Below, one piece after another: positions 16,802-52,194 of a stretch of DNA of 64,000 nt (its first letter is position 1; the number at the start of each line of letters is the position of its first letter). Under the pieces are notes generated by a model that saw only the letters and a list, made by a program, of their open reading frames with translations, did no database searches and was not told the origin of the DNA. The stretch covers positions 29,388 through 93,387 of the forward strand of contig DAOSLF010000004.1 in assembly GCA_035368605.1 (NCBI GenBank), given 5' to 3'. The DNA is from Candidatus Omnitrophota bacterium (GTDB taxonomy: Bacteria; Omnitrophota; Omnitrophia; Omnitrophales; Aquincolibacteriaceae). The position numbers and the translations under genes were made by a program.

Positions 16802-19800
16802 TTACGCGGATCTCGCAATAAGCGCCCGTTCGACAAACCGTTCGGCGATCGAGGCGATCGTGAGAGCGCCGATCGTGAATCCCGACGTTCCCTTCTTGCC
16901 GTAATTCGGAACAATATCCTCAAGGACTTTCAGGAGCGTGTCCCCGCTCAGCTCAGCAACCGAGGAAAGCTCGACAATGAGCCGGCCGATCAGCTTGAGA
17001 TCACCGCGCCCGACGTTGGCTGTAACAGCGAAGTTATTGCCGCCTTCAAGCAATTCGAGGACAGCCTCGTCATCAAAGAGCGTGGCGATCTTCCCGTCAA
17101 GACTGGCGGTCAGCGTTTTAACAACGCCGACTTCGGTCTGCCCCGCCGCGAGAACATGGATGCCGAGAATCTCTCCGGACTTCAGGGCGGCAACAATCTC
17201 ATCACGCTCCCTGAAATCCTTCGGGGCCACCGCATTCTTGCGGTAAAGCGCCTTTATCATCTCTTCGAACATTCCGGCATCCCCCGAAGTCTTGAGCAGG
17301 GTCTTCACGCCGGCAGCCCTGGCCTTATCGCGGTAGATCTTCAGAACATCGAACAGCGTCCCGGCGTCCTCGCGGATGAACCGGTTCATAAAGCTCCCGC
17401 TCACATAGAACGTGCCGTTGGATTCCAGGTCCTCCGGCGACATGACAAGTTCCGTTCTCTGGCCCGCGGTAAAATACTTGTCCAGTAGCGCCGTTTCGGG
17501 AGCGCGGGTCGCGGCGCTTGCCTTCGAGATACCGACCTTTGCCATCAGCATCCCCAGGACTTCCGTGCCGTGGCGGAACTGTTCCATGACCGCCTGACGG
17601 ACCGTTTCGGGGAAGATCCCGAAGCGCAGGTGCCGCACGAAAGCGAGAAACGAAGGCATCGTGATCCGGCGAAGATCAGGCTCGAGGTCTTTAACACCGA
17701 ACCCGTCTTGCGTGTTTGCGGGAACCGCATTCACCGCGACCGACGTCGTCGGGAGCGTCGGGGAGATCCGGGCTTCAGCACGAAGGGCCCCTGCGGTTCC
17801 GTCATACCCCTGAAGTCCGTTTTTCCGGAGTTCCTGAATATCGACACGCCGTCCTTCCATCACCCGCTTGATAATGATCGGATACAATTTAAGATTAGCC
17901 ACCCAGCTTTCCACAGGTCCTTCCCACTGCTTGGTAGCCAGAAACCGGAACACAACCCGGTCCATAAAAGCAGCCTTGTCATAATCCGAAAGCGCGTTAA
18001 AACGATCCATATCGAATTCCCGAAGGCTGGCTGTGCCGACCGCCCTCACTCGCACATTGTCAGAAACCTCACCCGTAACTTCATGCATGTTTCCCTCCGC
18101 CTTGCCAAGGCCGATGACGCTCAGGTCTTTCGAGGGTTTCGGGTCGAAAAGCAGCGGCAATTTCGCACGTCCACGCTCCGCGAGTTTCTCCAAAGTCCCT
18201 TTGGATCTGGCATCGCGCATCTCGTTGACGAAATCATCAAAAGACTGCGTCGCATCCCTCCGGTAAATGTCCGCAATGTATTTTGGCGTATAAATAGCAA
18301 CTGCGTTATTCATCCCCACAACATCCGCGGAATTCACTTTCCGGATGAGCCGGTAGTCCCCTTCGGCATTCCTGAACACGGCGATCCGCGACTCTTCTTT
18401 TTCTTTATCAGCATTCGCCAACTGCCGAAGCCCCTTGACGGTCATGATCGTCTCTGTTTCATAGGAGAGGTCCGTCGGCTCGATTTCGATGCTCTGGCCG
18501 GCCATAATCTTCGCCTCCAGATCGGACAAAACCCCTGCAGGAAGTTTTTCGGGTGTTTTTCCCTTGCCGGTAGCGGGATCGATTTGCAACTGTCTCCGCC
18601 AACCATCTTTCTCATAATCCGCGACAATCCGTTTCCAGGTCGCTTCAATGGAAGGGTCTTCCGCGATCCGGTGATTGCCTCTTTGCCCAATCATCCAAGC
18701 CCCGCCTTTCATCCCGGGCCCGCGACGCGACACCTCAAAGATCGCGTCATAACCCTTGCGATCCATCCACCCCAGTAATGTTAAAAAATTAGCGTCATAG
18801 GTTGCCGCGGCGTTGTCTATATTCCGGAACGGAATATATTTGATCCCCGCATCGATCAAGTCGAGAAGGATTCCCTTAGAGACCATTTGGTGGAAGAATT
18901 CGGCATGTCCCGCCGGATCCCGCTCCGTGGGATGGATCACCGCTTCAGGGTGACCGTTCGCGATCGCCGCTTCAACTTCTCTAGCCTTCTGAATGCTCGC
19001 GTCACGCCTTGCGTTGTGTTCTTCAATAGGGACTTCCGGAGAAGCTTTCACGGCGGTCGCATAAGCCTTGGGAATATCCCGTTCGCTCAAATAGAATTTT
19101 GGCGCGAGATCCTGCTGAAAACCGATTCTGCCCTGATTGCGAACAAACTGTTCCCCAGGAATCCCATAAAAACCGTTCCGCTTCAGCTCTTCGTTGAGTT
19201 CCTCCTGATAATTAGCGTTGGTCATGATGAGAACCCGGTTCTTCGACGTGGACGCACCCGACACGGCCGAGGAAACCTCTCTGAGAAGCATGCCGATATC
19301 CGTGAGCATCAGCCCCATGTAGGAATAAACCCGGTCACCGTACTCTCCAATAGGCGTCGCTCCCTTACTCATGAGCTTGTGCCCCTTCCCATGAAGTTTG
19401 TCGATCATGGAGAGAGCTCCCGCGGGCACCTTATCGGTCGACTGACGCGACGATGCACCCGCAGCAGCCGTGGCAAACGCGACCACGCCGCGCGCCACCA
19501 ATCCAGCGCCTCGCGAGGCGTCTTCTTTCCGTCCCGTTTCTGGCCATTGGGACATCTGGATTTCACGGAAATCGGCATCCTGACTTGGACGAACGGTTCC
19601 GCGGATTCCCGTCGGCCTCAGAGTCCCGGCAAACAATCCTACCCCGCGCGCAATCTCCGCTGCGGTCGCACCGACGCGCATTTCTGCCCGAATTCCCGCC
19701 GCTCCTGCGCGGATCGCGCGGGCATCGACAAAATCAAAGACGGTCTGCGCAATATCGTCCGCGGTGGATTGAACGGAAATCCGGTTCCACAAATAGCCGT

Positions 19801-22800
19801 CCGGCAGCTTATAGACCTCTTCCAGTTTCAGTTCGAGATCGCTCACATAAACAGAGTCCAGAACCGTCCCGACCTGATCACCGTCCTGATAAGGGACCAC
19901 CGATTCTTCGGAGATCAGCCTGATCACTTCAACCTTGATCTCGTCCCGCGTCAACGCCACAGTTGTCTCCCCATGACGGATACCCTCTCCCGCCCTCAGT
20001 TCCTGACGTGACACAAGACTTCTCTGGCCGGGCATTTCGACACGAGGCTTCGCGCCCACGGGACGAACTCTGAGTTTTCCCTTCACGATCCGAATCTCAG
20101 CCTTGGTCGCGCGGTCTTTGATCATCCGGGTCATCCTGCTCACCAGGGCAAGCTGCACACCCCGTTCGCTGTAATGACGGAACTCCCCGGTCCTGACCTC
20201 GATCGGGAGATCCGACTGTTTGAACCTCACGATCATTTCAATCGCATTCACAAGGCTGTTGACCGGAACCTGCCAGGTGTCAACCCCGACCGTCCGGATA
20301 TAAGATGGCAGCGCCGGCGTCTCGACAGCTTTGACCGCTCCCGCCCGAAGTTCCGCGCGTTGAGATTCCGGAGCGGGCTTCGGGGTGACTAATTGACGAC
20401 GAACTTCCCGGGTCAAAAAACCCGTCAGGTAAGCGCAGAGGATTTCTTTACTAACATCAGATCCTTTACCTTTAAGCTGATCCAGGAAAAGACGCATGGC
20501 CTCAGGACCTTCCGTCGCGAACCTCAGGGCCAGCGCGCGAAAAAGGGCATACTCCGAAACTCCCTCCATCAATTTCCCGATCCTGTTTTCCATCATCCAA
20601 TTGCCTCCGGCCATCAGCATCATGTGGAAATCATTCAAAATATCGCTAAGGGCCTCGAGAATGTCTGTGTGATGTTTCCCGCGCGAGGCATCTTCCCAAA
20701 GCGACTGAAGCCGCCGAAGGAACGGGACGTCGGGACGCCCCTGGGCGTCCTTGAACGCCACGCGACCAAGCCGGGCTCCTTCGAGTTGCGCATTCCCGCG
20801 GATCGCCGAATGCCGCGCGAGCATCCGCTTCCCCTCCTTCGAGATCCAAAAATCTTCAGGTACCGCCCTCCATTCGACAGTGACGGGCAGTCCTTTGACC
20901 TGACCCACGCTAAAGCGGACCGTTTTGAATTGCTGAAGAATGCTCGCAACGCTTTCCTCCGCGGCAAAAAGCACAAAACGTTTGGAGCCTGCGCGGCTCA
21001 AACCAAGAACTGAAATATCCCTGTTGTATGGAATACCGCGAGCGTCCTTGCCTCCCGCGGTAAAGCTGAGGTGCATGCCCAAACCGGACGCGGGTTCTTG
21101 CTTCACGGAAAACGTATCGTCCTTATTCTTCAGAATGAAATGGTACGGGGAAATGGGCCCCCAATCGGTGTAATAATGGCTGCGCATCATGCGCAAAAAA
21201 ACAAGCTCCTGTCCCCCATCAAGCTTCAGAACAGCCTGCTCGGGACGATATGTTTCATGATTATCAAAACCACCGAGATACCGAAAATTGGGATCTTGTT
21301 TCAGTTCCTCCATAAACCGATCCGGCGCCTTCATGAAGCGCAGTTCGTCGTCGGTCGCCCGCGGCAGATCACCCCGCATTTCGGCGCGGCCGGGCGTAAT
21401 CACGCCTTCTTTTTCAGGAACATTCCTCAACCCGGAACGCATGCGGACTTCCCGGCGAACAGCTTCGGCATCTTCAGATTCGTCGATCCCGGAACCCTCG
21501 ATCACGCCATTCCAGGTCGCGGAGGTCACTTCAACCCCGAGTTTACCGAGGATGTAGGAGCGGACATCACCCGCCGCAAACGGATCCCGGGCGAACTCTT
21601 CAGCGAACTCCCGGTATTGGGATTCTGTGATCCCATAAATCTTCGCCCACTCGATGTTTTCACTTTCGGAACGCACTTCATCCTCAAATTCCAATGTCCC
21701 CATGAGTCCGATGCCCCCGATGAAAAATCCAACCGCTGCGATCGCTTTAAGCAAATCGAGAACCGCCGAGCCCCTCGTCCTTTCAGCCTTGGTCCCCTTG
21801 CTGGGTAAGACGGCTCTCTTATCAACAGGCATTAACCGGAAAGCGGGATGGATCGCGAAAACAGCTGCGCCTGATCTTTCAGGCGGGGCCAGCATCGGAT
21901 TCACGGGGAGCTCAACGCGGTCACCGCGTGTTCGGGAGCGCGTCGCCTCGAGAGCCCTCAGAATCGCGTCGTGATTCTTTGTGTAAAAACTCTCCGCCTG
22001 CTTGTCATTCAAACCTGCTTCGCGAAGCGCGTAGGCGATCACATCAGCGATATCGCTATGCTCGTCCTTGAGGATCGTTAGGTTCGTCCGACTCCCTACG
22101 GCATCGAGAAAAAAATCGACATCTCCTTTGATATAATCGCGAAGATCCGCAGCGACTCCAGCGACCATAGCTTCCGCGTTTTCCCGCATTTCGGAACGCC
22201 GCGGCATCGCGTTGATTCTCGCAAGAAGCTTGCGCGAAAAATCCCTTACCCAAGGGTCTTGGTGATTCAGCAATTCCGGGAGGTTTGAAGCGAGGAAGTT
22301 CCGGAGAATCGGCTCATTCGCCACGCGTCCGAACCAGGCTTCCCTCTCACGTTGCCTTCCATGGTTCCCGTTTTTGAGATCCCAAAGAAGCATTTCGTCA
22401 TAAATGGGGCTGGGCGATTCTTCACCAGTGCGCCATTCCGAGCGCGCGGGCACAGTTTCCCGTTCTTGCACATCCGCCTCGAGTTGTTTGATCAGGGCCT
22501 TCCGGGCGGCGATCTGATTATCGAGAGACGCCAGTTGTTTGAATTCCCTATACTTGGGATGATAGGCTTTCGGGTTCGCGGCCAGAAGTTTCCTGTTGTT
22601 TTCCATGACGGAAAGGTTCCCCTTCTCCCGGCGAAGAAGATTACGCGCGGCCTCGAGATCCTTGTCATAAACGGGATCGGACATACGCGCCTCAGCCCGT
22701 TTACGGGGGGAAGTCTCTTCAGGAACATTATCCTGCTTTTTATACCCACCGTAACGATAGAGTGAGTAAAACGCGAACACAAAGAGCCCGGCACCGGCAG

Positions 22801-25630
22801 CGATCGCGGCATAAGACAAAAATCCCAAAGCGTTAACGATCATATTGGAATTAATAAAAACCAATGGGAGGAACCCACCGAATTCGGTCGAACGCCTGGG
22901 GCGCAGCTCCGTTCCCGACCCGCTCCGTTCCTCGGAGATCACTTTATCGAGATGAACGGTTCCGTTCGTGGACCTGACGATAAAATGAAGCCCGTCCGGT
23001 CTTTTCCGGAAATTCCAGATGGTCTGCTTCGGATCGAGCAGAACAGATGCCATAGCCGTGTCCTCGAACGGAATCTCCCCGACCACCGTCAGGACCTTGT
23101 TCCCTTTTTTGGAGATAACCGTGGAAGATTTGCCGGTCCGGGTGACGATCGGAAGCCGGCGGGGCGCGTCGGAGAGGATATAGATCCCGAATTTGCCATC
23201 GATGAAAGTCACGGCGATATCGCCAAAGAGCTTCGCGCGCATGGGCAGATTCCACAAGCGGTTGTTTAAATATTCATACCGCATGTCGCCGATGTCCTTC
23301 ACCCATTTCACTCCAGCCCCGGCCAGCTGCATCTTGTAGATCTTCCCGTCGGTCGTCTCATGGAAGAAGAAAACCTTGAGGATCGTCTGGACATCCCGAA
23401 GAAACGCCTGAAAGTCACCGCTACGCTTGAACGCTTTCAGAAGAGCTGCCAGAAGATCGTTCGCCCTCGTTTGGGGTTTTGCGGTACTTCTCTCCCTCGC
23501 CTCGGCGCGGGCAAGAGCGGAAATGATCGCGCGGTGATGATTCTCAAAAAAGACCTCAGCCTCCTCATTATTAAAACCTTCGCCGCCGAGCGTCTCATAG
23601 ATTTCCTGCGACACATCGGGGAATTCCTCACCGACCTGGGCCAGGGTTGTTTTGTTCCCCAGCGCCGTCAAAATCAGGTATCTGTCACTGGAAACGGCCT
23701 TAAGCAGATTATCCACAATGAGGTTTATCAGGGCGTCGGTCCCGGCAACCTCCCGCACCGGATCTTCCCGGGTTTCCGCGCGGAGTTGCAACGCAAGTGC
23801 CCGCGCGGCCCCGGGATTCCCGGCAAGGACGGGCAGCGCGGCGCGATATTCGGCACGGGCAAGAGCTTCGGCATCAACACCCATTGCCCTCAATTCGGCA
23901 GGCGAAGCGGACACAAACGGGGATTCGCGGGTGGAGCGGGTCACCGGGGACTGGCCGCTGGTCACTGGTTTAATACCGGCAACAGGAGACGGGCGACCAG
24001 CGACTGTCTGCAACGTGTGATTAATGTAGGCCTCATATCCGGCTTTATCCGCATCGGTGATCCTGGGCGACACAAGCGCATAGGTGTAGCCCCTGGAAGA
24101 GAAATAGTCACGGAAGGGTTCGGAGTGAAAACCGCCGGTCACGACAGCCACTTTGTCGGCCCCTGTTTCAAGGAGACGTTTTTCGATCATGCCGATCATC
24201 GCGAGGTCACGGGCCTTGACACCCTCATAGAATTTCAGGGCGCTCGCGTAAAGGGCGTCCAGTTCGCCGGTATGCCTAAAACGGACATCCTTCACCCGCT
24301 TTGACGAGCCGGCCACAGCCTTCTCAAAACGCTTTGCGATCACAGAGGGCGTCAGTTCCGTGGTCCGCTTTAAAAGAGCTTCATAGTCCGCGGGCGTCAG
24401 CTCAAGCGCGAACAGCTTCTGAAGAAGCCGGTAGTCCTTGAGAAGCGAGATCACGGTTTTTTCGGTCGCCGTGCGGGCGAGCTTGTCCGTGACGGCATCC
24501 GTCAATTTCCCGGTCTCGTTCATGAGCGCGGCCGCCTTGAGCTCGCTCGTAAGGATCAGCGTGCCGATGAAGGCGCGGACATTCGGGAAAAGGGCGTAAT
24601 TGAAATCCTGGGGAAGCTGGCGGGTCATTTCTTCAAAAAGAAGGCTGGTCTCGGGATCGGGCAACGGCTGGCTCACCGGATCATTTTTCAGAATCTTTTC
24701 GACGGCGGCGCAGACGCCCGCCCCGGGAATGAAACGCCTGATCGCCTTCAGGAACGAGTCCCGTTCCTTCGGGAGCTTCTTCGCGTCGAGTTCCCGCTGA
24801 AGCTTCCTGATCATGAAAAGCCGCGTTATCATGGGCCATTCAAGCTGTTCGGCGGGATCCCCGAGCTCAAGCTTGAGCGTCCGGGACGATTCTTCCTTCA
24901 GATAGGTAAACCACGCGTCCGGGGGCATGATCTTCTTTTCAAAGGACTCTTGCGTCCGGACGAATTTGCGGAGGTTGTCGTTGAGGTACGGCGCGGAAAG
25001 ACGCTCGATCCCCTCATTCATCTGCGCGAGGAAACCGGAGGTCTTTTCTTTTTGGGTCAACACTTCGACAAAGGCCTCGCCGTTCGCGCGGTATGCGGAG
25101 GCCTCTTCGATGCCATATCCTTCGGCCGACCCGGGATGCCGGACTTTATCGAGAAGGTAAAGTTCGGGACCTTTCACGATCGCGCTCTTCGTGAGCCGGT
25201 CCGCCACCTTCGCCGTAAGCTTGGGGTCCCTGGGGAAGAAGTTCAAGAGTTCGGGACGGAGCCTGAAAGCGCTTCCCTCGACAAGGAGCGTCCGGATGCC
25301 GTAATGCTTGTCGAGATGATGCAAGATCTGGCGGATCTTCTGCTGGGCGTCGTAGTGACCGTGAGCGGTCTGGATATGCACGACGCCCGGTCCCCGCCCC
25401 AGTTTCAGGTCCTCGATCTTCCCTATGTCCCGCGGCAGCGCGAACCGCAGGTTCGTATCGAGAACAGCCTGATACGGGAGATTCACTTCCGACATTGTTG
25501 CCGCGGCAAAAGACACTCCGGGTGTCCAAAGGGTCGTCGCGATGAACGTAACAAGCGTGACAAAAGCAATGGCGGGTTTGAATCTGCCGAAAGAAGAACT
25601 TGAGGCACTTGTGCTGTTTTTGCTGTCCAT
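16802..25630 (-). CDS. Giant (2942 aa) multidomain membrane protein of unknown function.
   Basis: A single uninterrupted 8829-nt ORF. Signal-peptide-like N-terminus FVTLVTFIATTLWTPGVSFAAA. N-terminal region with paired GxxH motifs (HIQTAHGH, VVTGGFHSEP), TraB/GumN/Tiki-superfamily-like. Hydrophobic TM segment about residues 920-960 (LPLVFINSNMIVNALGFLSYAAIAAGAGLFVFAFYSLY). A second possible TM helix lies near residue 1300. A UDPGP-family (UGPase-like) nucleotidyltransferase-like domain lies near the C-terminal third. No homologous full-length protein is recognised. Confidence 0.85.
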   Translation of the reverse strand: MDSKNSTSASSSSFGRFKPAIAFVTLVTFIATTLWTPGVSFAAATMSEVNLPYQAVLDTNLRFALPRDIGKIEDLKLGRGPGVVHIQTAHGHYDAQQKIRQILHHLDKHYGIRTLLVEGSAFRLRPELLNFFPRDPKLTAKVADRLTKSAIVKGPELYLLDKVRHPGSAEGYGIEEASAYRANGEAFVEVLTQKEKTSGFLAQMNEGIERLSAPYLNDNLRKFVRTQESFEKKIMPPDAWFTYLKEESSRTLKLELGDPAEQLEWPMITRLFMIRKLQRELDAKKLPKERDSFLKAIRRFIPGAGVCAAVEKILKNDPVSQPLPDPETSLLFEEMTRQLPQDFNYALFPNVRAFIGTLILTSELKAAALMNETGKLTDAVTDKLARTATEKTVISLLKDYRLLQKLFALELTPADYEALLKRTTELTPSVIAKRFEKAVAGSSKRVKDVRFRHTGELDALYASALKFYEGVKARDLAMIGMIEKRLLETGADKVAVVTGGFHSEPFRDYFSSRGYTYALVSPRITDADKAGYEAYINHTLQTVAGRPSPVAGIKPVTSGQSPVTRSTRESPFVSASPAELRAMGVDAEALARAEYRAALPVLAGNPGAARALALQLRAETREDPVREVAGTDALINLIVDNLLKAVSSDRYLILTALGNKTTLAQVGEEFPDVSQEIYETLGGEGFNNEEAEVFFENHHRAIISALARAEARERSTAKPQTRANDLLAALLKAFKRSGDFQAFLRDVQTILKVFFFHETTDGKIYKMQLAGAGVKWVKDIGDMRYEYLNNRLWNLPMRAKLFGDIAVTFIDGKFGIYILSDAPRRLPIVTRTGKSSTVISKKGNKVLTVVGEIPFEDTAMASVLLDPKQTIWNFRKRPDGLHFIVRSTNGTVHLDKVISEERSGSGTELRPRRSTEFGGFLPLVFINSNMIVNALGFLSYAAIAAGAGLFVFAFYSLYRYGGYKKQDNVPEETSPRKRAEARMSDPVYDKDLEAARNLLRREKGNLSVMENNRKLLAANPKAYHPKYREFKQLASLDNQIAARKALIKQLEADVQERETVPARSEWRTGEESPSPIYDEMLLWDLKNGNHGRQREREAWFGRVANEPILRNFLASNLPELLNHQDPWVRDFSRKLLARINAMPRRSEMRENAEAMVAGVAADLRDYIKGDVDFFLDAVGSRTNLTILKDEHSDIADVIAYALREAGLNDKQAESFYTKNHDAILRALEATRSRTRGDRVELPVNPMLAPPERSGAAVFAIHPAFRLMPVDKRAVLPSKGTKAERTRGSAVLDLLKAIAAVGFFIGGIGLMGTLEFEDEVRSESENIEWAKIYGITESQYREFAEEFARDPFAAGDVRSYILGKLGVEVTSATWNGVIEGSGIDESEDAEAVRREVRMRSGLRNVPEKEGVITPGRAEMRGDLPRATDDELRFMKAPDRFMEELKQDPNFRYLGGFDNHETYRPEQAVLKLDGGQELVFLRMMRSHYYTDWGPISPYHFILKNKDDTFSVKQEPASGLGMHLSFTAGGKDARGIPYNRDISVLGLSRAGSKRFVLFAAEESVASILQQFKTVRFSVGQVKGLPVTVEWRAVPEDFWISKEGKRMLARHSAIRGNAQLEGARLGRVAFKDAQGRPDVPFLRRLQSLWEDASRGKHHTDILEALSDILNDFHMMLMAGGNWMMENRIGKLMEGVSEYALFRALALRFATEGPEAMRLFLDQLKGKGSDVSKEILCAYLTGFLTREVRRQLVTPKPAPESQRAELRAGAVKAVETPALPSYIRTVGVDTWQVPVNSLVNAIEMIVRFKQSDLPIEVRTGEFRHYSERGVQLALVSRMTRMIKDRATKAEIRIVKGKLRVRPVGAKPRVEMPGQRSLVSRQELRAGEGIRHGETTVALTRDEIKVEVIRLISEESVVPYQDGDQVGTVLDSVYVSDLELKLEEVYKLPDGYLWNRISVQSTADDIAQTVFDFVDARAIRAGAAGIRAEMRVGATAAEIARGVGLFAGTLRPTGIRGTVRPSQDADFREIQMSQWPETGRKEDASRGAGLVARGVVAFATAAAGASSRQSTDKVPAGALSMIDKLHGKGHKLMSKGATPIGEYGDRVYSYMGLMLTDIGMLLREVSSAVSGASTSKNRVLIMTNANYQEELNEELKRNGFYGIPGEQFVRNQGRIGFQQDLAPKFYLSERDIPKAYATAVKASPEVPIEEHNARRDASIQKAREVEAAIANGHPEAVIHPTERDPAGHAEFFHQMVSKGILLDLIDAGIKYIPFRNIDNAAATYDANFLTLLGWMDRKGYDAIFEVSRRGPGMKGGAWMIGQRGNHRIAEDPSIEATWKRIVADYEKDGWRRQLQIDPATGKGKTPEKLPAGVLSDLEAKIMAGQSIEIEPTDLSYETETIMTVKGLRQLANADKEKEESRIAVFRNAEGDYRLIRKVNSADVVGMNNAVAIYTPKYIADIYRRDATQSFDDFVNEMRDARSKGTLEKLAERGRAKLPLLFDPKPSKDLSVIGLGKAEGNMHEVTGEVSDNVRVRAVGTASLREFDMDRFNALSDYDKAAFMDRVVFRFLATKQWEGPVESWVANLKLYPIIIKRVMEGRRVDIQELRKNGLQGYDGTAGALRAEARISPTLPTTSVAVNAVPANTQDGFGVKDLEPDLRRITMPSFLAFVRHLRFGIFPETVRQAVMEQFRHGTEVLGMLMAKVGISKASAATRAPETALLDKYFTAGQRTELVMSPEDLESNGTFYVSGSFMNRFIREDAGTLFDVLKIYRDKARAAGVKTLLKTSGDAGMFEEMIKALYRKNAVAPKDFRERDEIVAALKSGEILGIHVLAAGQTEVGVVKTLTASLDGKIATLFDDEAVLELLEGGNNFAVTANVGRGDLKLIGRLIVELSSVAELSGDTLLKVLEDIVPNYGKKGTSGFTIGALTIASIAERFVERALIARSA

Positions 25631-44121: not shown

Positions 44122-47100
44122 CTATACAGACTTCTTCGGTTTTACTTCCACCTCAAACACCGTACCGCGAACACCGGTCAGCGCGGTAGGCGTACGCACT
44201 TCGAATTTCGATACACCTCTAAGGGGCTCAACCTTGGCGATCAGTTTACCGATCGCAAGGTCCAGCAATGTCGTATTACTATTACTGACGGGATCCTGTT
44301 CCATCTTCCGGATGCGGAACAAACTCCCGCCCTTCAGCTCGATCTTCCCGACCTTGCCACCGTCGAGTGCCAGCACCACGGAATCACGGCCGGCCGTCTT
44401 GACCTCATCTCCCGGCAAAAGGACCATGCCATCCTCCGCCGCGATCCAGTCCCCTCCGCGATTCTTCACAAATACATCCCGCCCGGGATTCTTGAGAGTC
44501 CCATAGAGGATCCCTTCGGGGATCGGATCCGGGGCCGCAGGCGTGGCGGCCTGAGGAGCTTCCTGCCGGCGGATAAACTCTTTTTCAATGCGCTTCGCCT
44601 CCTGTACGGCTATCTCCTCAGCGGAAGTGATCATTGGTTCGGGCTCAGCTTTTGCGGAAGCTGTCTTTTGTTCCGCCCGGTCCTGCTTGGATGTCAATTG
44701 CGAGGACATCCCTTTCTGGGCTTCAGCCAGCGAAAGAGCCTCCATCGCCCTCTTTTTAGCCTGGGCAAGTTTCCGTTTCTTATACATCACGCGATAAGTG
44801 TGCCCCCAATCCAGAAACTGAAGATGATCCCCGTTATCCAGAACGTACACTTTCCCTTCCCTGACATAAACATCCGTAATCAACTCCTCGCCGAGATCAT
44901 CCTGGTTCAGGATATTGTCCCAGGAAAAATGGCCGTTCAGAATATCATCGTCGACATTATCTCCCCGGATGTCATTGCGGGAATCATTACCGTCAGAAGG
45001 ATCGTCAGGGAGGTCCGGGTAGTTGCCCTGATCATCGCCACCAAGATTGATCCCGTCGCCTTCAATGGTCACAACGGCGGGATCCCCATCATCAACCCCC
45101 GGAGGATTCGTCCCGTTCCCGTTGGTTTCATCATCGATCGTATTGTCGATCGTGTTGTCGGTGCTATTCGTAGGGTCGCCAACGCCGGGTCCCGGGGGCG
45201 GGGGGGCCGCGGAGGTAATACTAACGCTAAGCCCTGTCGGCTGGGACACGGTATAGTTGTCTTTATCAAAACCGGACAGAGTGAAACCTGTCACGAGCAC
45301 CGACCATGTCCCCACATTCGCCTCCGCAGATGTCCCGGAAGCCAAACTCGAGTCCAACAAGACTTCATCGCCACCAATCCCCCCGACTAAAGCCGCCGTG
45401 GTGGTGTCCAACGTTACAGCGGTTGAACCATCGTAGATTTTATTGGCAACGCTGACCCCCGTGATCGTCAGCTCCTTCGCCGTGATATCCGCGGTCAATC
45501 CCGCCAAAGGAGCCACGGTGTAATTGGAAGCATCGGTCCCCGACAAAACAAGATCCGTCACGGTAACAGTTTTTCCATTCCCAACGCTCTTGTTTGCAAA
45601 GACGCCGGAGCCCAAACTCCCATCCAGTGAAACATCATCACCCCCGATCACTCCTGTGATCGAAGCACCGCCCGTGACAAGTTCCGCATTTACCGTCCCG
45701 TCATACACCTTGTTGCCGGCCGCGATCCCGGCAAGCGTTACAGCCTTCGCCGTAATGTCCGCGGTCACGCCCAATGATCCTACGCTATAATTAGAAGCAT
45801 CCGCCCCCGAAAGGCTGAGGCCGCTGATTAAAACGGCTTTTTCGATGCCAACGTTCTTGTTTACAAAGGTCCCCGTGATCCCCGAATCGTCCCAACTCAC
45901 AACATCCCCAGCCACAATACCCGTCAAGGAAGCGGTCCCTGCCACCGTAGCATCTGTCGTCGCGTCATACACCTTGTTGCTGGCAGTAACCCCCGTGATC
46001 GTCAGCTCCTTCGCCGTAATATCCGCAGTCGTCGTGTCCTGGTCCGTCACCGTGTAATTACCGAGATCCGCACCTCCCAAAACATTCGTCAACGTCACCG
46101 TCTTTCCCTCACCGACGTTCTTATTGTCAAACACGCCGTTAGACGAAACCGTCAACTCATCCCCCGCGATCATCCCCCCGAATGATGCCCCCGTCACAGA
46201 CACCTCCGCGCTCACGCCCCCGTCATACACCTTGTTGCCGGCAGTGATCCCGGAGAGCGTTACAGCCTTCGCCGTAATGTCCGCGGTCGTCGTGTCCGTC
46301 GAAGAACCGAGTGAATAATAAATGGCGTCATCCCCGGTGAGTGAAATTCCGCTCACGTTGACGGCTTTTCCCGTCCCGACATCCTTGCCATCCGCAAAAA
46401 CAGCATTGTAGCTGTAACCGATTTCATCATAACCGGAGAGTTTATCGTCCAGAAAACTCACGGTCGCCGAGGTCAGGCCGTCATACACCTTGTTCGTTCC
46501 CACAGCATCCGCGGTTAACAGGATCTTGGCCGCCCCGCGATCGATCGCCAGATTTCCAAACGTAAAATTGGCTCCACGGGTGTAGATCGTCGTCCCGGCG
46601 CCCGACGACCGGCCCAAATGAAGATCGTGATAGGTCTCATGATTGGGAAGGATCTGGTCGGTGTCAGACTGAAGGTTCAGCGTTCCTCCCGTCCAATCGG
46701 TCCTGGCCGCATTGACATCCGCTTCTTGATAGGTTGCGTTCGCACCCCTGACAGTCACGGTGTTCGCTCCGGAGACAAAGGAACCGTCCGTCACCTTGAA
46801 CTTTCCGCTTACATTCATTGCGCCCTGCAAGGTCCACTCCCCGCCCGAACCGGTGAAACTGATATTATAAAAAGCATTCTCCAATCCCCCAGTCGTGATC
46901 TGCTTCCCTGAGGCGCTCCCATCAAAAGTGACCGTCCCGGTCCCGGCGTTAAAGGTTCCGCTATTCATCCAATCCCCGGTCACATAAATATTGGCAGGGG
47001 CATTCAAAGTACCGCTGTTGACAAGACTCCCGGCAAGATCCACATCCCCACCCGGACTGAATGTCACCGCCGAGGGGATCCAAAGATCGACGCCATTCAC

Positions 47101-50100
47101 CGTCAGCGCCCCGCCGGCCACGGAGTAATAAACATTCGGGTTGCTGTAGTACGCGGAGCCCAGGATCGAGTTCGTAAAACTTGTTCCCGCCACCCCGTCC
47201 GCATCTCCGATCGAAAGACGGCCGTCATACATCAGCAGTCCCGAAACATCACCCGCGGACTGCACGACCCCGACAAGGTTCGCCTTGCAGGATGCATCGT
47301 TGGCATAGATCAGCACATATTCGCCGCCGCTCAAACTGAGAGAACCAAAACTGAACGCTCCACCGCCAGTCGTGGTCGTCGTAACAGGCGCGGCGCCATT
47401 AAATGAAAGAGCCATCGAAATCCCGGCCCCGAGACCGCTGACAAGTCCCGCGATCGTGTAAGTCGCGGGAGGAGGAGGTGTTGCGTTTTCCCAATGAAGT
47501 CTCGGGAGCGCGCCCGCAAAACTGTCCCATACGGGAACTGTCGTAAAATCCCACGGCGTAGCACCGGTATACACCGCGCCACCCGTCCCGCTTCCTGTCC
47601 CATGGAAATCACTTGCCGCGGCGGCTTTCTCGGCCATTCCATCGACGCCATAGCCAGAAACAGCGGGATTATTTCCTATCGCATAGGTGTTCGTTTCGTT
47701 ATACCACCAATTATTCGTTAGCAAGAAAGAAACATATTGAGCGCCCACCAGAGCTCCCGGCGTGGCATTCGACGCTGATGCGACACCGGTGCTGAAGGAA
47801 TTGCTGATCTCGGAATCAATATTACCTCCCACCAGGCCACCGACGTTTGAATACCCATCTACGTTGCCCGTCGCATAGGAGTTCTTAACCGACGAAACAC
47901 CGTCATCGTCTCTCACCAGATACCCCACCAAACCACCGGTGGCAGAGGCTCCGGTCACATTAGCCATGGAATAGGAGTTGGTCACGGTCGAATTATTGCT
48001 ATACCCGATTAACCCTCCGGTATGACCACCACCGCTAACAGTGCCGGTCGAACAGGATCTCACGACAGCTGTATTATTACGAGCATACCCCGCCAAACCA
48101 CCCACAAAAGCATTGCCACTAACACTGCCATTCACGAGGCCGACATCAGATATCCTCGCTCCATCCGCGCTTCCCAAAAGTCCAACGTAATTCTCTCCCG
48201 GGCGGTTAATGGTAAGACCCGTGATCGTCTTTGAATTTCCTTCCAGGGCTCCCGTAAACGGATCCCCCGGAGATCCACTCCCCACCGGGTCAAACCCGGC
48301 GCCGGAATTCCAATTCGCAGTCGATGTCGCATCAATATTACTATTCAAACGGAAGTTGCTTGAAAGATAACCTTTCATCGCCTGGAGGTCGTAAACATCG
48401 CGGATCAGATACGGGTCCTCCGGAGAACCCGCGCCCGTGTAACGATTGAACGTCTCGCTCCCGGAATCCGGCACGCTGAAACTTCCGCCGACCGTGAAGG
48501 TATGAAGCGTGGGAGCCGCATCCGAATACGCGCCTCCGGTCTGCGTGTAATCGCCTGTGATCGCGACATCCCCGCCCTGTGTGAAAGACCCGCTACTCAA
48601 AGTGAAATCACCGCCGACGTTCAGCGTCGCTGTGCTCGAATAAGTTCCGGCAATCGTCAGGTCCGCGTTCGAGACGGTCACGTTGCCGCCCGGAGCAAAC
48701 GCGATGCCCGTGGGCACCCAGAGATCGATCCCGCTTAACGTTAAATCCCAGCCGTTCAAGGCATAATGAACATTCGGGTTGCTATAGTAAGCCCCGCTGA
48801 GAGTCGAGTTGGTAAAATTCGTTCCGACCACCCCGTCCGCATCCCCGATCGCAAATCGGCCATCGTGCATCGCAAGACCGGCAATATCACTGGCCGATCT
48901 GACAATTCCGACAAGACCGGATTGATAAGAACCATCGTTGACATAGATCAGCAGATATTCGCCGCCGTTCAGCGTGACCGAATCGAAACTGAACGCTCCG
49001 CCGGCGGTCGTGGTCGTCGTCACGGGCGCCGCCCCGTCCAATGAAAGCGCCATCGAGATCCCGGCGTCAAACCCGCTTAAAAAGCCCGCGACCGCGTGAG
49101 TGGATGAGGCGGGTCTCAAACGGGGAGTGTCGCCGACCCTCGAGGACCAATCGGCCGCGAAATCCCAGGGGCTACCTCCGGTGTAAACGCCCCCTCCCGT
49201 ACCGCTCCCCGTCCCATAAAAATCGCTCAGCGCGGCAGCCTTGGTGACCCCGGGAGAAGAACCACTCCCCACACCCACCGTGTTCGTTTCGTTGTACCAC
49301 CAATTATTTGTGAGAGACCCCGTATATCTGGGCTGATACCCGACCAGGCCGCCCGGAGTATCGGAACTCGAGGTTGCCACACCCGTACTGTACGAATTCG
49401 TAATCGAGGATGTGTCGTAATCATTTCCTAGTCTTCCCACCAAACCTCCTGTGTTATTTTTCCCGGTCACATTTCCAGTCGCATAAGAACGATCGATCGA
49501 GGATGCCCCTGTCAAAAATCCGACTAACCCTCCAAGATCTCTATAACCATTCACACTACCCGTCGCATAAGAATTTGTAATGGTAATATTTTCAAAAGTA
49601 CCCCCTACTAATCCGCCGAGATAATAGCTCACACTTCCTGCGGTCACCGAGCCCGTTGCATAAGAATTACTAATCGCAACCTTTTGCGCAGCCCATCCGA
49701 TCAAACCTCCCGCACGCGAACCATATCGATCTGTGAGAGTTACATTGCCCGTCGCATGGGAGTTGGTAACGGCAGCGTTCCACCAAGCCCTTCCCACCAA
49801 ACCACCGGTACCAACGTCACTGGCATCGCTTCTGACGGCTGCTTCGGAATAGGAATTAACAATGTTAAAATCACTACCGGCACCCAAAAGACCGCCGACG
49901 CCGTCTGAACCTCCGACAGTTCCCGTGCTATAAGAATTACTGATAGACGTCCCGCCCCCAGCATGCCCGACAAGCCCACCGACACCATTACTTCCGGTCA
50001 CGGCGCCCTGATTGTAGGATCCGCTGATAATAGTGGGCCCATTACTATTCCCCACCAGGCCGCCCGTGACTGCCCCGCCTCGTACACGACTGCTTAAAAG

Positions 50101-52194
50101 ACCAATATTCCGGATCACCGCGCCAGAGACATAGCCAAACAACCCAACATTCTCTTCACCTGGACGATTGATGGTGAGCCCGGTCACCGTTTTTGTACTG
50201 CCGTTCAATGAACCGGTGAACGCATATTCCGGATGTTCTCCGTCATAATTCCCCACCGGATCGAACCCCGCACCGGAGTTCCAGTTAGTCGTACCGGAAG
50301 CATCGATATTGTCATTCAGTTGGAAGGCCGAGGAAAGAAAACCCTTCATGGCCTGAAGTCCGTAAACGTCGTAGATCATGTAAGGATCTCCGCCCGTTCC
50401 GGCACCGGTAAACCGATTCAGCTTCGCGTCACTGTTGATCCTGAAATCCGTGATCCCCGTCCAGGTCGTGGCCGTCGGAGAAGCGGTGAATGTCGCACCT
50501 CCTCCGAGGGTGAAGATTCCGACATTTGAGATACTGCCCAGGCTTGAAGCACTCGCAGCGGTGATCGTTAAATTATAGCCCCCCCCGGCAAGGGATCGAT
50601 CCGATGCCATCGTAAAAGCTCCGGAAGCATTCCAGACAACATTCCCGAGGAGTGTCAGGTCGCTTGTCACATTGAAATTCACGTCATTATAAGTTCCGGC
50701 CCCGATATTGCCGCCAATATCCGCCGCAAGATCCGTATTATCGAAGTAACCATTCCCGGCTCCAAGGATTCCCGTGGTCCGGAAGGTATAGCCATGCTCG
50801 TAAAAACGATCCGCTAAAAGCGTCCCGCGATTCTCAATGATTCCTTCGGTTCGGATTTCAATACTTCCCTGCTCGGCTTCCAACACCCCGGCATTCGTGA
50901 CATCTCCCGTTTCGGAATCGAGAAAGATTTCGCCATTCGATGCCTTGATGATCGCTTCATTCAGAATATCCTCGCTCGCGGCGATCTCAATCTTCCCCTT
51001 CTCCGCTTCCAGAAGGCCGGTATTCCGGAAACCGCCGGTTTGTGAATCAAAAAGAGCCAGACCGTTCGAAGCCGTGATGATCGCTTCGTTCACGATATCA
51101 TCAAAGGCATCCAGGGAAAGTTTCCCGCCCTTCACATCCAGCGTCCCGGCATTCAAAAATCCGCCTTTCGCGGTCCCGACAGAAAAGCTCCCGTCACGGG
51201 CACGGACGATCGCGTTGACGTAAACATCATCCAGGGTCAGGAACTCGATGCTTCCGTTGTCAGCGCGGATCGCCTCGACAGCCTTGTCGCTACGCTCAAT
51301 ATTGATCGCTTTTTCGAAGAGCCCGTCGATGGCTTTGGCGGTAAGCGATATTTTGCCTCCGTCCGCTGTAATGGAGCCGGAGTTTCTGATCTGATCTTTC
51401 AATCCGAGCTCATTCGCCGTCGCTTCATCCACACCGATCGACACCATGCCGTCTCCCGAAATACCGATCGTCACCACGTCTCCCGCGGCGAGCGCCACAT
51501 GCCCCATCGGCACATCAATCGCGCCTTTGTTATCAATCGCATTCGCTACCAGCGCCACGCGCGCCGCGTCGTGGCCCTGGATGCGTCCGTCATTCGTGAT
51601 CAAGCCCTGTTCGCCTTCGAAGAGGTACTGATGGGTGAGGAAATTCGAGGCGTTGAGGTTGAGGGGCAGGGTTGTCGCGATGAAGGACGCATCCCGGACG
51701 TTGACGAGGCCGGTAGCGCCGATATTGATGCCATAGATATTCTGCAGGATGAAATCCAGGTTACTCAGGTTCATCGTGCCGAATATGTTAGTCGCACTTC
51801 CCCCTCCCACGAGAAGTGCAAGGCTTGAGTTGTCTGAGATGCCTGTGATGTTATACGTGCTCCCCGCCGCGACGTTGAATTCCGGCACGTTCCACACCGG
51901 ATTCCCACTGACGTTCCAGTTCGTCACAGTGCCGTCCGCGGAGATGTCGATCGTGCCGCCATCTACGGTGACGATTTCCGCAGAGACGGGGGCAATGGTC
52001 ATGGAGAAGGCAAAGATAAAGGCGGTGAGAGATGAAATCAACTTCCGGGAGTTGGGGATGTGAAACCCGGGGATCGGGGCCAAGGGCCGGAGACCCGTTG
52101 TTAAAAACAGGCCCCGAGGGACGAAGCCCGAGTCCCGGAACATTTGATCTTCAAATCCGTATAGAGTTTCGCAGGTTCCCTGTTTCATAACCAC
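44122..52194 (-). CDS. Giant (2690 aa) secreted filamentous-haemagglutinin-like exoprotein with TPS domain, GLUG repeats, MBG repeats and FecR-like C-terminus.
   Basis: A single uninterrupted 8073-nt ORF. Extended signal peptide (SSLTAFIFAFSMTIAPVSA). TPS/haemagglutination-activity-type N-terminal domain (NWNVSGNPVWNVPEFNVAAGSTYNI...LALLVGGGSATNIFGTMNLSNLDFILQNIYGINIGATG). Two blocks of GLUG-like repeats (GGLVG...NSYATG). Four to five MBG repeats (ADITAKxxTITG...NKVYDG...NYTV). D/N-rich acidic tract. C-terminal FecR-like beta domain (GTVFEVEV). Confidence 0.85.
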   Translation of the reverse strand: MVMKQGTCETLYGFEDQMFRDSGFVPRGLFLTTGLRPLAPIPGFHIPNSRKLISSLTAFIFAFSMTIAPVSAEIVTVDGGTIDISADGTVTNWNVSGNPVWNVPEFNVAAGSTYNITGISDNSSLALLVGGGSATNIFGTMNLSNLDFILQNIYGINIGATGLVNVRDASFIATTLPLNLNASNFLTHQYLFEGEQGLITNDGRIQGHDAARVALVANAIDNKGAIDVPMGHVALAAGDVVTIGISGDGMVSIGVDEATANELGLKDQIRNSGSITADGGKISLTAKAIDGLFEKAINIERSDKAVEAIRADNGSIEFLTLDDVYVNAIVRARDGSFSVGTAKGGFLNAGTLDVKGGKLSLDAFDDIVNEAIITASNGLALFDSQTGGFRNTGLLEAEKGKIEIAASEDILNEAIIKASNGEIFLDSETGDVTNAGVLEAEQGSIEIRTEGIIENRGTLLADRFYEHGYTFRTTGILGAGNGYFDNTDLAADIGGNIGAGTYNDVNFNVTSDLTLLGNVVWNASGAFTMASDRSLAGGGYNLTITAASASSLGSISNVGIFTLGGGATFTASPTATTWTGITDFRINSDAKLNRFTGAGTGGDPYMIYDVYGLQAMKGFLSSAFQLNDNIDASGTTNWNSGAGFDPVGNYDGEHPEYAFTGSLNGSTKTVTGLTINRPGEENVGLFGYVSGAVIRNIGLLSSRVRGGAVTGGLVGNSNGPTIISGSYNQGAVTGSNGVGGLVGHAGGGTSISNSYSTGTVGGSDGVGGLLGAGSDFNIVNSYSEAAVRSDASDVGTGGLVGRAWWNAAVTNSHATGNVTLTDRYGSRAGGLIGWAAQKVAISNSYATGSVTAGSVSYYLGGLVGGTFENITITNSYATGSVNGYRDLGGLVGFLTGASSIDRSYATGNVTGKNNTGGLVGRLGNDYDTSSITNSYSTGVATSSSDTPGGLVGYQPRYTGSLTNNWWYNETNTVGVGSGSSPGVTKAAALSDFYGTGSGTGGGVYTGGSPWDFAADWSSRVGDTPRLRPASSTHAVAGFLSGFDAGISMALSLDGAAPVTTTTTAGGAFSFDSVTLNGGEYLLIYVNDGSYQSGLVGIVRSASDIAGLAMHDGRFAIGDADGVVGTNFTNSTLSGAYYSNPNVHYALNGWDLTLSGIDLWVPTGIAFAPGGNVTVSNADLTIAGTYSSTATLNVGGDFTLSSGSFTQGGDVAITGDYTQTGGAYSDAAPTLHTFTVGGSFSVPDSGSETFNRYTGAGSPEDPYLIRDVYDLQAMKGYLSSNFRLNSNIDATSTANWNSGAGFDPVGSGSPGDPFTGALEGNSKTITGLTINRPGENYVGLLGSADGARISDVGLVNGSVSGNAFVGGLAGYARNNTAVVRSCSTGTVSGGGHTGGLIGYSNNSTVTNSYSMANVTGASATGGLVGYLVRDDDGVSSVKNSYATGNVDGYSNVGGLVGGNIDSEISNSFSTGVASASNATPGALVGAQYVSFLLTNNWWYNETNTYAIGNNPAVSGYGVDGMAEKAAAASDFHGTGSGTGGAVYTGATPWDFTTVPVWDSFAGALPRLHWENATPPPPATYTIAGLVSGLGAGISMALSFNGAAPVTTTTTGGGAFSFGSLSLSGGEYVLIYANDASCKANLVGVVQSAGDVSGLLMYDGRLSIGDADGVAGTSFTNSILGSAYYSNPNVYYSVAGGALTVNGVDLWIPSAVTFSPGGDVDLAGSLVNSGTLNAPANIYVTGDWMNSGTFNAGTGTVTFDGSASGKQITTGGLENAFYNISFTGSGGEWTLQGAMNVSGKFKVTDGSFVSGANTVTVRGANATYQEADVNAARTDWTGGTLNLQSDTDQILPNHETYHDLHLGRSSGAGTTIYTRGANFTFGNLAIDRGAAKILLTADAVGTNKVYDGLTSATVSFLDDKLSGYDEIGYSYNAVFADGKDVGTGKAVNVSGISLTGDDAIYYSLGSSTDTTTADITAKAVTLSGITAGNKVYDGGVSAEVSVTGASFGGMIAGDELTVSSNGVFDNKNVGEGKTVTLTNVLGGADLGNYTVTDQDTTTADITAKELTITGVTASNKVYDATTDATVAGTASLTGIVAGDVVSWDDSGITGTFVNKNVGIEKAVLISGLSLSGADASNYSVGSLGVTADITAKAVTLAGIAAGNKVYDGTVNAELVTGGASITGVIGGDDVSLDGSLGSGVFANKSVGNGKTVTVTDLVLSGTDASNYTVAPLAGLTADITAKELTITGVSVANKIYDGSTAVTLDTTTAALVGGIGGDEVLLDSSLASGTSAEANVGTWSVLVTGFTLSGFDKDNYTVSQPTGLSVSITSAAPPPPGPGVGDPTNSTDNTIDNTIDDETNGNGTNPPGVDDGDPAVVTIEGDGINLGGDDQGNYPDLPDDPSDGNDSRNDIRGDNVDDDILNGHFSWDNILNQDDLGEELITDVYVREGKVYVLDNGDHLQFLDWGHTYRVMYKKRKLAQAKKRAMEALSLAEAQKGMSSQLTSKQDRAEQKTASAKAEPEPMITSAEEIAVQEAKRIEKEFIRRQEAPQAATPAAPDPIPEGILYGTLKNPGRDVFVKNRGGDWIAAEDGMVLLPGDEVKTAGRDSVVLALDGGKVGKIELKGGSLFRIRKMEQDPVSNSNTTLLDLAIGKLIAKVEPLRGVSKFEVRTPTALTGVRGTVFEVEVKPKKSV
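45240..46510 (-). repeat. MBG-type repeats within giant gene 2: four clear units of about 88 aa plus one degenerate leading unit.
   Basis: Repeated ADITAK(A/E)(V/L)T(L/I)(S/T)G(I/V)...NK(V/I)YDG...(V/A)G(D/G)(D/E)...NK(N/S)VG.(G/E)K.V.....L.G.D..NY(T/S)V. Periodicity is about 265 nt at the DNA level. Confidence 0.7.
46860..50430 (-). repeat. Internal tandem duplication inside giant gene 2: two copies (about 1.98 kb and 1.59 kb) of a module.
   Basis: The module is: [L/F]NR[F/Y]TGAG..DPY[M/L]I.DVY.LQAMKG.LSS.F.LN.NIDA, then a GLUG block, then LTNNWWYNETNT, then GTGSGTGG.VYTG.PWDF, then PRL, then A..AGL.SG..AGISMALS..GAAPVTTTTT.GGAFSF, then GGEY.LIY.ND. The protein segments match closely. The DNA shows a near-identical 29-nt stretch (gtgttcgtttcgtt[g/a]taccaccaattatt) at about 49279 and about 47688. 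Confidence 0.7.

Follow-up and report, generated by a model that had tools for sequence, protein, structure and literature searches.

A giant Omnitrophota protein with a divergent two-partner secretion domain, a C-terminal FecR-fold module and a predicted unlinked TpsB transporter

The giant gene at 44122..52194 (minus strand) of the 64-kb stretch of Candidatus Omnitrophota DNA analyzed here, hereafter the window, very probably encodes a TpsA-family surface or secreted fibre, and the product is likely to be exported by a TpsB transporter encoded at an unlinked site. With somewhat more confidence than doubt, we view the protein as a FecR-capped, TpsB-exported adhesin that is tethered by, and possibly signals through, a predicted periplasmic C-terminal stopper. 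The placement of the FecR module in the periplasm, where it would act in retention and/or signalling, is put forward more tentatively. A preliminary description of the window had read the product as a TpsA-type exoprotein and candidate adhesin with no TpsB nearby, and this core reading is upheld by the evidence for the TPS (two-partner secretion) domain and by the searches for TpsB.

Architecture of the giant protein

The open reading frame lies exactly where it had been placed and comprises 2690 aa when counted from a GTG codon, a length far beyond chance; it is a real gene. Translation probably begins at ATG 52188, which has a ribosome-binding site (GAGGGGAAG) just 5' of the codon and would yield 2688 aa. 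The predicted product is acidic and 274 kDa in size. The window has a counterpart in the Candidatus Omnitrophota assembly GCA_029553765.1 (JAKPKJ010000084.1), and the C-terminus of the giant protein is identical to OQA42337.1 from Ca. Omnitrophica ADurb.Bin314. It shares no similarity with the product of the second giant gene in the window (16802-25630), and the two are therefore not considered paralogs. The segments of the protein are listed in Table 1.

Table 1. Segments of the giant protein, from N- to C-terminus, with their positions in the window
Segment	Residues (aa)	Position	Strand	Basis or remark
N-terminal extension	1-49	52048..52194	-	precedes signal peptide; contains probable start ATG 52188
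Sec signal peptide (...AFIFAFSMTIAPVSA, then EIV after cleavage)	50-72	51979..52047	-	read from translation; position conserved in clade
Divergent TPS domain	73-330	51205..51978	-	phmmer, AF2, Foldseek
Beta-helical shaft extension	331-590	50425..51204	-	AF2 all-beta model runs on past TPS core; 30-40% identity in paralogs
GLUG module 1	591-1030	49105..50424	-	PF07581; NCBIfam ZmpA-like region; 9 GG[LI]xG motifs, aa 711-948
Spacer/Ig-like + beta-helix segment 1	1031-1244	48463..49104	-	internal duplicate of aa 1566-1750
GLUG module 2	1245-1565	47500..48462	-	Pfam/NCBIfam; 4 GG[LI]xG motifs, aa 1365-1452
Spacer + beta-helix segment 2	1566-1895	46510..47499	-	duplicate of segment 1 plus extension
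Five YDG Ig-like repeats	1896-2330	45205..46509	-	PF18657, 5 stretches
Pro-rich hinge + D/G/N-rich acidic tract	2331-2440	44875..45204	-	D 22%, G 15%, N 13%
Small conserved beta-domain (TDVYVREGKVYVLDNG...), two long charged helices, Pro-rich linker	2441-2562	44509..44874	-	AF2 secondary structure
FecR-fold module	2563-2690	44125..44508	-	ends in invariant FEVRTPxxxTGVRGTxFEV; collinear with free-standing FecR proteins after tpsA

Much of the passenger had been recognized in the preliminary description. Its GLUG repeat blocks are matched by PF07581 in 7 stretches (81 bits) and contain 13 GG[LI]xG motifs in two blocks, and its D/N-rich acidic tract was likewise located downstream of the repeats. 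What had been called MBG repeats are in fact five YDG domains (PF18657, 218 bits, E=1.3e-65), with K[VI]YD[GA] at aa 1902, 1988, 2074, 2162 and 2252. When a segment designated 'mid1' was used as query it matched the regions of both segment 1 and segment 2. The region between the acidic tract and the FecR-fold module is conserved in C-terminal fragments of other giant proteins. Other than the signal peptide, no hydrophobic run is found in the protein.

A divergent TPS domain at the N-terminus

The Sec signal peptide starts at around residue 50 and is therefore preceded by an N-terminal extension of about 47 residues. Extensions of 30-80 aa, starting MK(N/K)(K/E)N..DQ, occur in clade relatives, and the extension of the giant protein gave no Pfam match to ESPR (PF13018). 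Read by eye from the sequence, the signal peptide has the hydrophobic core AFIFAFSMTIAPVSA and a cleavage site between VSA and E, together spanning aa 58-72.

Sequence comparison and modelling identify the N-terminus that follows as a genuine but divergent TPS domain. With phmmer it matches EtpA (8cpk) at E=2.1e-9 over 235 residues, and the relatives P0007 and P0008, at ~60% identity, carry PF05860. Structure prediction of the N-terminus, suggested in the preliminary description, returned the TPS beta-helix fold (AF2; pLDDT 86.8, pTM 0.87). Foldseek searches with this model gave 9 PDB matches at E<=0.001, all of which are TpsA secretion-domain structures (EtpA, HxuA, HMW1, FHA), with HpmA next in order; TM to HMW1 was 0.72 and the top matches had a probability of 0.98-1.00. 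The Haemagg_act/TPS model PF05860 itself did not match in the Pfam scan, nor when the N-terminus was scanned by itself at E<=10, and TIGR01901 reached 13.1 bits (cutoff 29.1). The TPS/haemagglutination-type N-terminus had been proposed from short motifs. These are present, and the homology itself is shown by phmmer, AF2 and the relatives. The proposal had also held that a lack of HMM support for a TPS domain would speak against it. Formally that lack applies to Pfam and TIGRFAM, but it is outweighed by the EtpA match, the PF05860-positive relatives and the confident, TPS-only structure model, and because of these three the assignment stands.

The divergence is most apparent in a motif in which ILQNIYGI replaces LVNPNGI. 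The NPNG turn thus reads NIYG (aligned as Q-N-I-Y-G), in which the N and G alone are retained, and the whole orphan clade has NI[AY]G at this site. In the orphan clade as a whole, NPNG and NRV have both given way to other motifs, while the rest of the TPS framework is conserved. The NPNG beta-turn is described as crucial for folding and secretion (review PMC5422565); given its change to NIYG, recognition by a TpsB is assumed here.

The C-terminal FecR-fold module

A FecR-like domain at the C-terminus had been noted before and is well founded, with PF04773 scoring 25.2 bits (cutoff 24) and a lineage-specific HMM giving E=2e-55. It had also been called atypical. That holds for TpsA proteins generally, but within this Omnitrophota family a FecR C-terminus is the rule, and by sequence comparison the module is a fusion of what is elsewhere a separate gene after tpsA. 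In an exhaustive search 38 representatives reached E<=1e-30, and in 36 of them, proteins or fragments of up to 5861 aa, the module forms the very C-terminal end. An N-terminal TPS domain was combined with a C-terminal FecR in 12 among the 150 representatives listed, nine of them belonging to the window's clade. One complete clade member, L012, has no FecR, so the module is not obligatory. Operons of related systems have the order TpsB-TpsA-FecR-x (L028/29) or TpsB followed by TpsA-FecR-CHASE2-GGDEF (L033). The free FecR proteins have a Sec signal peptide, and their sequence runs collinear with the last 128 aa of the giant protein; neither a TPS domain nor any other outer-membrane export signal was found in them. 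Literature searches for TPS and FecR fused or in one operon turned up only FecR-type regulators of TPS genes.

The folds nearest to the module are FecR/PupR and the MpIBP retention module, both periplasmic domains. In NCBIfam the nearest entries are Lsa33 and LipL45 of Leptospira (E=1e-8), annotated as surface adhesin and lipoprotein. The annotation of these FecR-domain proteins as surface adhesins is contrary to a periplasmic placement.

In the mechanism that we propose, the Sec signal peptide and TPS domain would direct type Vb export, with one unlinked TpsB serving all of the scattered TpsA paralogs. As secretion would run from N to C, the C-terminal FecR module would be the final portion to remain in the periplasm, and a folded module, being barred from the TpsB pore, would act as a stopper keeping the fibre on the cell. 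Such retention would parallel that of MpIBP and LapA, which have the same fold at the trailing end. The module may further report to a CHASE2-GGDEF (c-di-GMP) sensor. Secretion polarity, the free homologs and the fold analogy are the basis for placing the fused FecR in the periplasm.

The first alternative, which we consider unlikely, is a conventional TpsA in which the full length crosses the outer membrane, FecR included, so that the module forms a ligand- or prey-binding tip and the free FecR proteins are secreted accessory adhesins. The mature C-terminus of FHA is distal, and the surface annotation of the NCBIfam neighbours, as well as the L012 protein that lacks the module as an exchangeable tip would predict, are in keeping with this possibility. 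A tip domain is harder to reconcile with free homologs that have a Sec signal peptide only, with closest folds that are periplasmic, and with a module that is always at the trailing end of secretion. The gene link to an inner-membrane CHASE2 sensor, the sensory domain of which faces the periplasm, also argues against it.

A second alternative treats the module mainly as a signalling adaptor, which would bind the periplasmic CHASE2 domain of a diguanylate cyclase, report the secretion state or the pull on the fibre, and set c-di-GMP. The FecR/PupR fold is that of a cell-surface-signalling domain, and the CHASE2-GGDEF gene located beside an orphan TpsB (CHASE2-GGDEF-TpsB, L035-38) and that beside FecR in L033 are orthologs. 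Proteobacteria repeatedly pair a FecR-domain protein of the periplasm with a CHASE2 sensor (PMC5192318, PMC5498481). Against this, no CHASE2 gene was found in the 64-kb window or beside most clade loci, and adjacency to CHASE2 is seen in only two of five distinct TpsB/FecR contexts, being absent from L028/29 and L034/L039. As a principal function we regard this as quite unlikely, more so than the tip domain. An adaptor role is compatible with retention.

Two further identities for the C-terminus were examined and rejected. The module is not a FecR-type anti-sigma factor, since it consists of the PF04773 beta-domain only and has no cytoplasmic anti-sigma domain, transmembrane helix or STN-like subdomain; neither an ECF sigma factor nor a TonB-dependent transducer was found among the window ORFs scanned. 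A CdiA toxin was also rejected, as VENN, VDNN, ELYN and NEALV are all lacking, the C-terminus is FecR, and the ORF downstream encodes a helical protein of 134 aa that matches no family.

Transporter search and paralogous loci

The gene is flanked upstream by hydE and downstream by tRNA-Leu(GAG), in agreement with the preliminary description, whereas no HMM supports the 'phasin-like' label that it gave to the 134-aa ORF. No TpsB is present in the 64-kb window, as had been claimed: all ORFs of at least 400 aa are otherwise assigned, and a lineage-specific TpsB HMM found nothing in the six frames. A TpsB just outside the window had been named as a finding that would make this a conventional two-partner system, and none lies within the 7 kb past the right edge. 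ABC-2/MFP/OEP genes beyond the window were considered as a T1SS and rejected, being of the ABC-2 efflux type and ~12-19 kb upstream of the giant gene.

The family comprises 22 loci, with nine and six paralogs in two MAGs. The TpsB HMM was negative at all clade loci, and ~20 paralogous loci in sister MAGs have no adjacent TpsB. Genes upstream of the paralogs include those for GH57, GGDEF-EAL, sigma-54 activator, DNA ligase and starch synthase proteins. The sizeable same-strand ORFs at these positions were checked as possible TpsBs and were rejected, as they are GH57/DUF3536, GH57-BE_C, RR-PAS-GGDEF-EAL, sigma-54 activator, histidine kinase, DNA ligase and starch synthase; a 653-aa ORF upstream of one paralog, which has no Pfam match, was negative with the TpsB HMM. 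Locus L003 carries the label 'Armatimonadota', probably through a binning error. A Geobacter origin, to which the label on P0007 points, was rejected, since the named relatives and the source assembly are Omnitrophota.

Several Omnitrophota genomes have a TpsB that stands alone, without neighbouring cargo, in a conserved housekeeping locus of the order DHH-TpsB-LemA-TPM. One such transporter, P0114, lies at 310.0-311.7 kb of DAOPYQ010000001.1, and clade member L012 is located on the same contig at ~246.6-255.0 kb, 55 kb apart. The TpsB contigs L039/L040 compare with the window at TNF r=0.98 and GC 56.5-56.8%, which equals the same-organism controls and is above all other loci, and the TpsB and the window belong to one ENA sample series. 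The link between the window's organism and a TpsB is thus drawn from a sister genome and from composition. Some TpsBs export more than one TpsA (review PMC5422565). The stand-alone locus, P0114 and the composition match favour what the preliminary description had offered as an alternative, a transporter encoded elsewhere.

Replacement of NPNG and NRV throughout the orphan clade, together with ~20 loci none of which adjoins a TpsB, would also fit a TPS-like beta-helix that has ceased to be a substrate for TpsB. On that view, losing NPNG would signal a switch to a T2SS/secretin, to another Omnitrophota route or to a periplasmic stay. Giant Omnitrophota proteins are reportedly encoded next to T2SS genes. 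However, the same genomes conserve the stand-alone TpsB, which has no cargo beside it and must have a substrate; the turn keeps its N and G, the remaining TPS framework is retained, and the fold is that of an intact TPS domain, all of which make this reading very improbable. Export by the unlinked TpsB is the reading we retain. Repeat-rich giant genes frequently break assemblies and paralog L001/L021 is interrupted by a frameshift, but with the same intact gene called at 2688 and 2687 aa in independent assemblies (NCBI, ENA), a frame open over 8 kb and every module conserved, an assembly artefact or decaying pseudogene is hardly credible.

Relationship to known systems

With EtpA of ETEC, HMW1 of H. 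influenzae and FHA of B. pertussis, the giant protein shares a Sec signal peptide (sometimes N-extended), a ~250-aa N-terminal TPS beta-helix, and a very long beta-helical or repeat passenger that is presumed to be adhesive. Unlike these, its gene is outside a tpsB operon, its turn is NIYG and it is missed by the Pfam and TIGRFAM models. It further differs in having a GLUG and YDG passenger and a FecR-fold end, in belonging to a multi-paralog family with up to nine members per genome, and in coming from an uncultured phylum of the PVC group.

CdrA/CdrB of Pseudomonas aeruginosa is similar in that the TpsA has a periplasmic C-terminal end holding the adhesin on the cell and a link to c-di-GMP, which is what we propose here. 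CdrA is tethered through its TpsB, and its tail, which periplasmic LapG cuts under c-di-GMP control to release the adhesin, is a precedent for a periplasmic TpsA C-terminus. However, CdrA has a cysteine hook and a LapG di-alanine site, and cdrA and cdrB are adjacent; both the hook and the di-alanine site ([TAP]AA[GV]) are absent from the giant protein, which has a folded FecR module instead.

The retention module of MpIBP/LapA (PDB 5ix9) has a fold like that of the FecR module, with 19% identity in the structural alignment. The MpIBP/LapA adhesins use a T1SS with C-to-N polarity and have the module at the N-terminus, while the giant protein lacks the LapG site. Pfam detected no RTX in the giant protein. 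Fold similarity with neither a di-alanine site nor RTX does not make it a T1SS adhesin of the LapA/MpIBP type.

The PF04773 beta-domain is shared with the FecR/PupR anti-sigma factors, from which the giant protein differs in not being an anti-sigma factor. A related gene arrangement is that of the LysM-FecR and CHASE2 kinase of Burkholderia 'BiofilmReg', PA4035/36, and smc02177-cyaD1 of S. meliloti, in each of which a small Sec-exported FecR is found beside a CHASE2 enzyme, as in L033. Those pairs are without TpsA or TpsB, whereas here FecR is fused to or follows tpsA, with a GGDEF cyclase as the CHASE2 enzyme.

Implications

Omnitrophota are uncultured and mostly ultra-small, and are thought to be attached to or to prey on other cells; according to the literature their giant genes are poorly annotated and of unknown function. 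One family of these giant genes now gains a predicted secretion route, as multi-copy type Vb adhesins that would be served by one unlinked transporter. With it comes a previously undescribed third component, a putatively periplasmic FecR-fold module that is either part of the fibre protein or the product of the gene immediately downstream, and a repeated association with a CHASE2 diguanylate cyclase. The module is a candidate protein partner for CHASE2 domains, the ligands of which are largely unknown. For annotation, the consequence of the divergent TPS domain is that PF05860 and TIGR01901 overlook a whole TPS clade. Because a common fold links the FecR module to the plug that retains T1SS giant adhesins, the analogy suggests that the unrelated T1SS and type Vb pathways converged on the same means of tethering a fibre.

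A more far-reaching idea, which we hold to be unlikely, is that the FecR-capped TpsA, the shared stand-alone TpsB and CHASE2-GGDEF together form an outside-in mechanosensory adhesion system. The periplasmic FecR stopper, whether fused or free, would contact the CHASE2 domain, and secretion arrest, or the pull on the fibre upon attachment to host or prey, would be turned into c-di-GMP synthesis. If this were true, CHASE2 would gain a protein ligand and type Vb secretion a signalling output, and the system would explain attachment sensing in ultra-small Omnitrophota.

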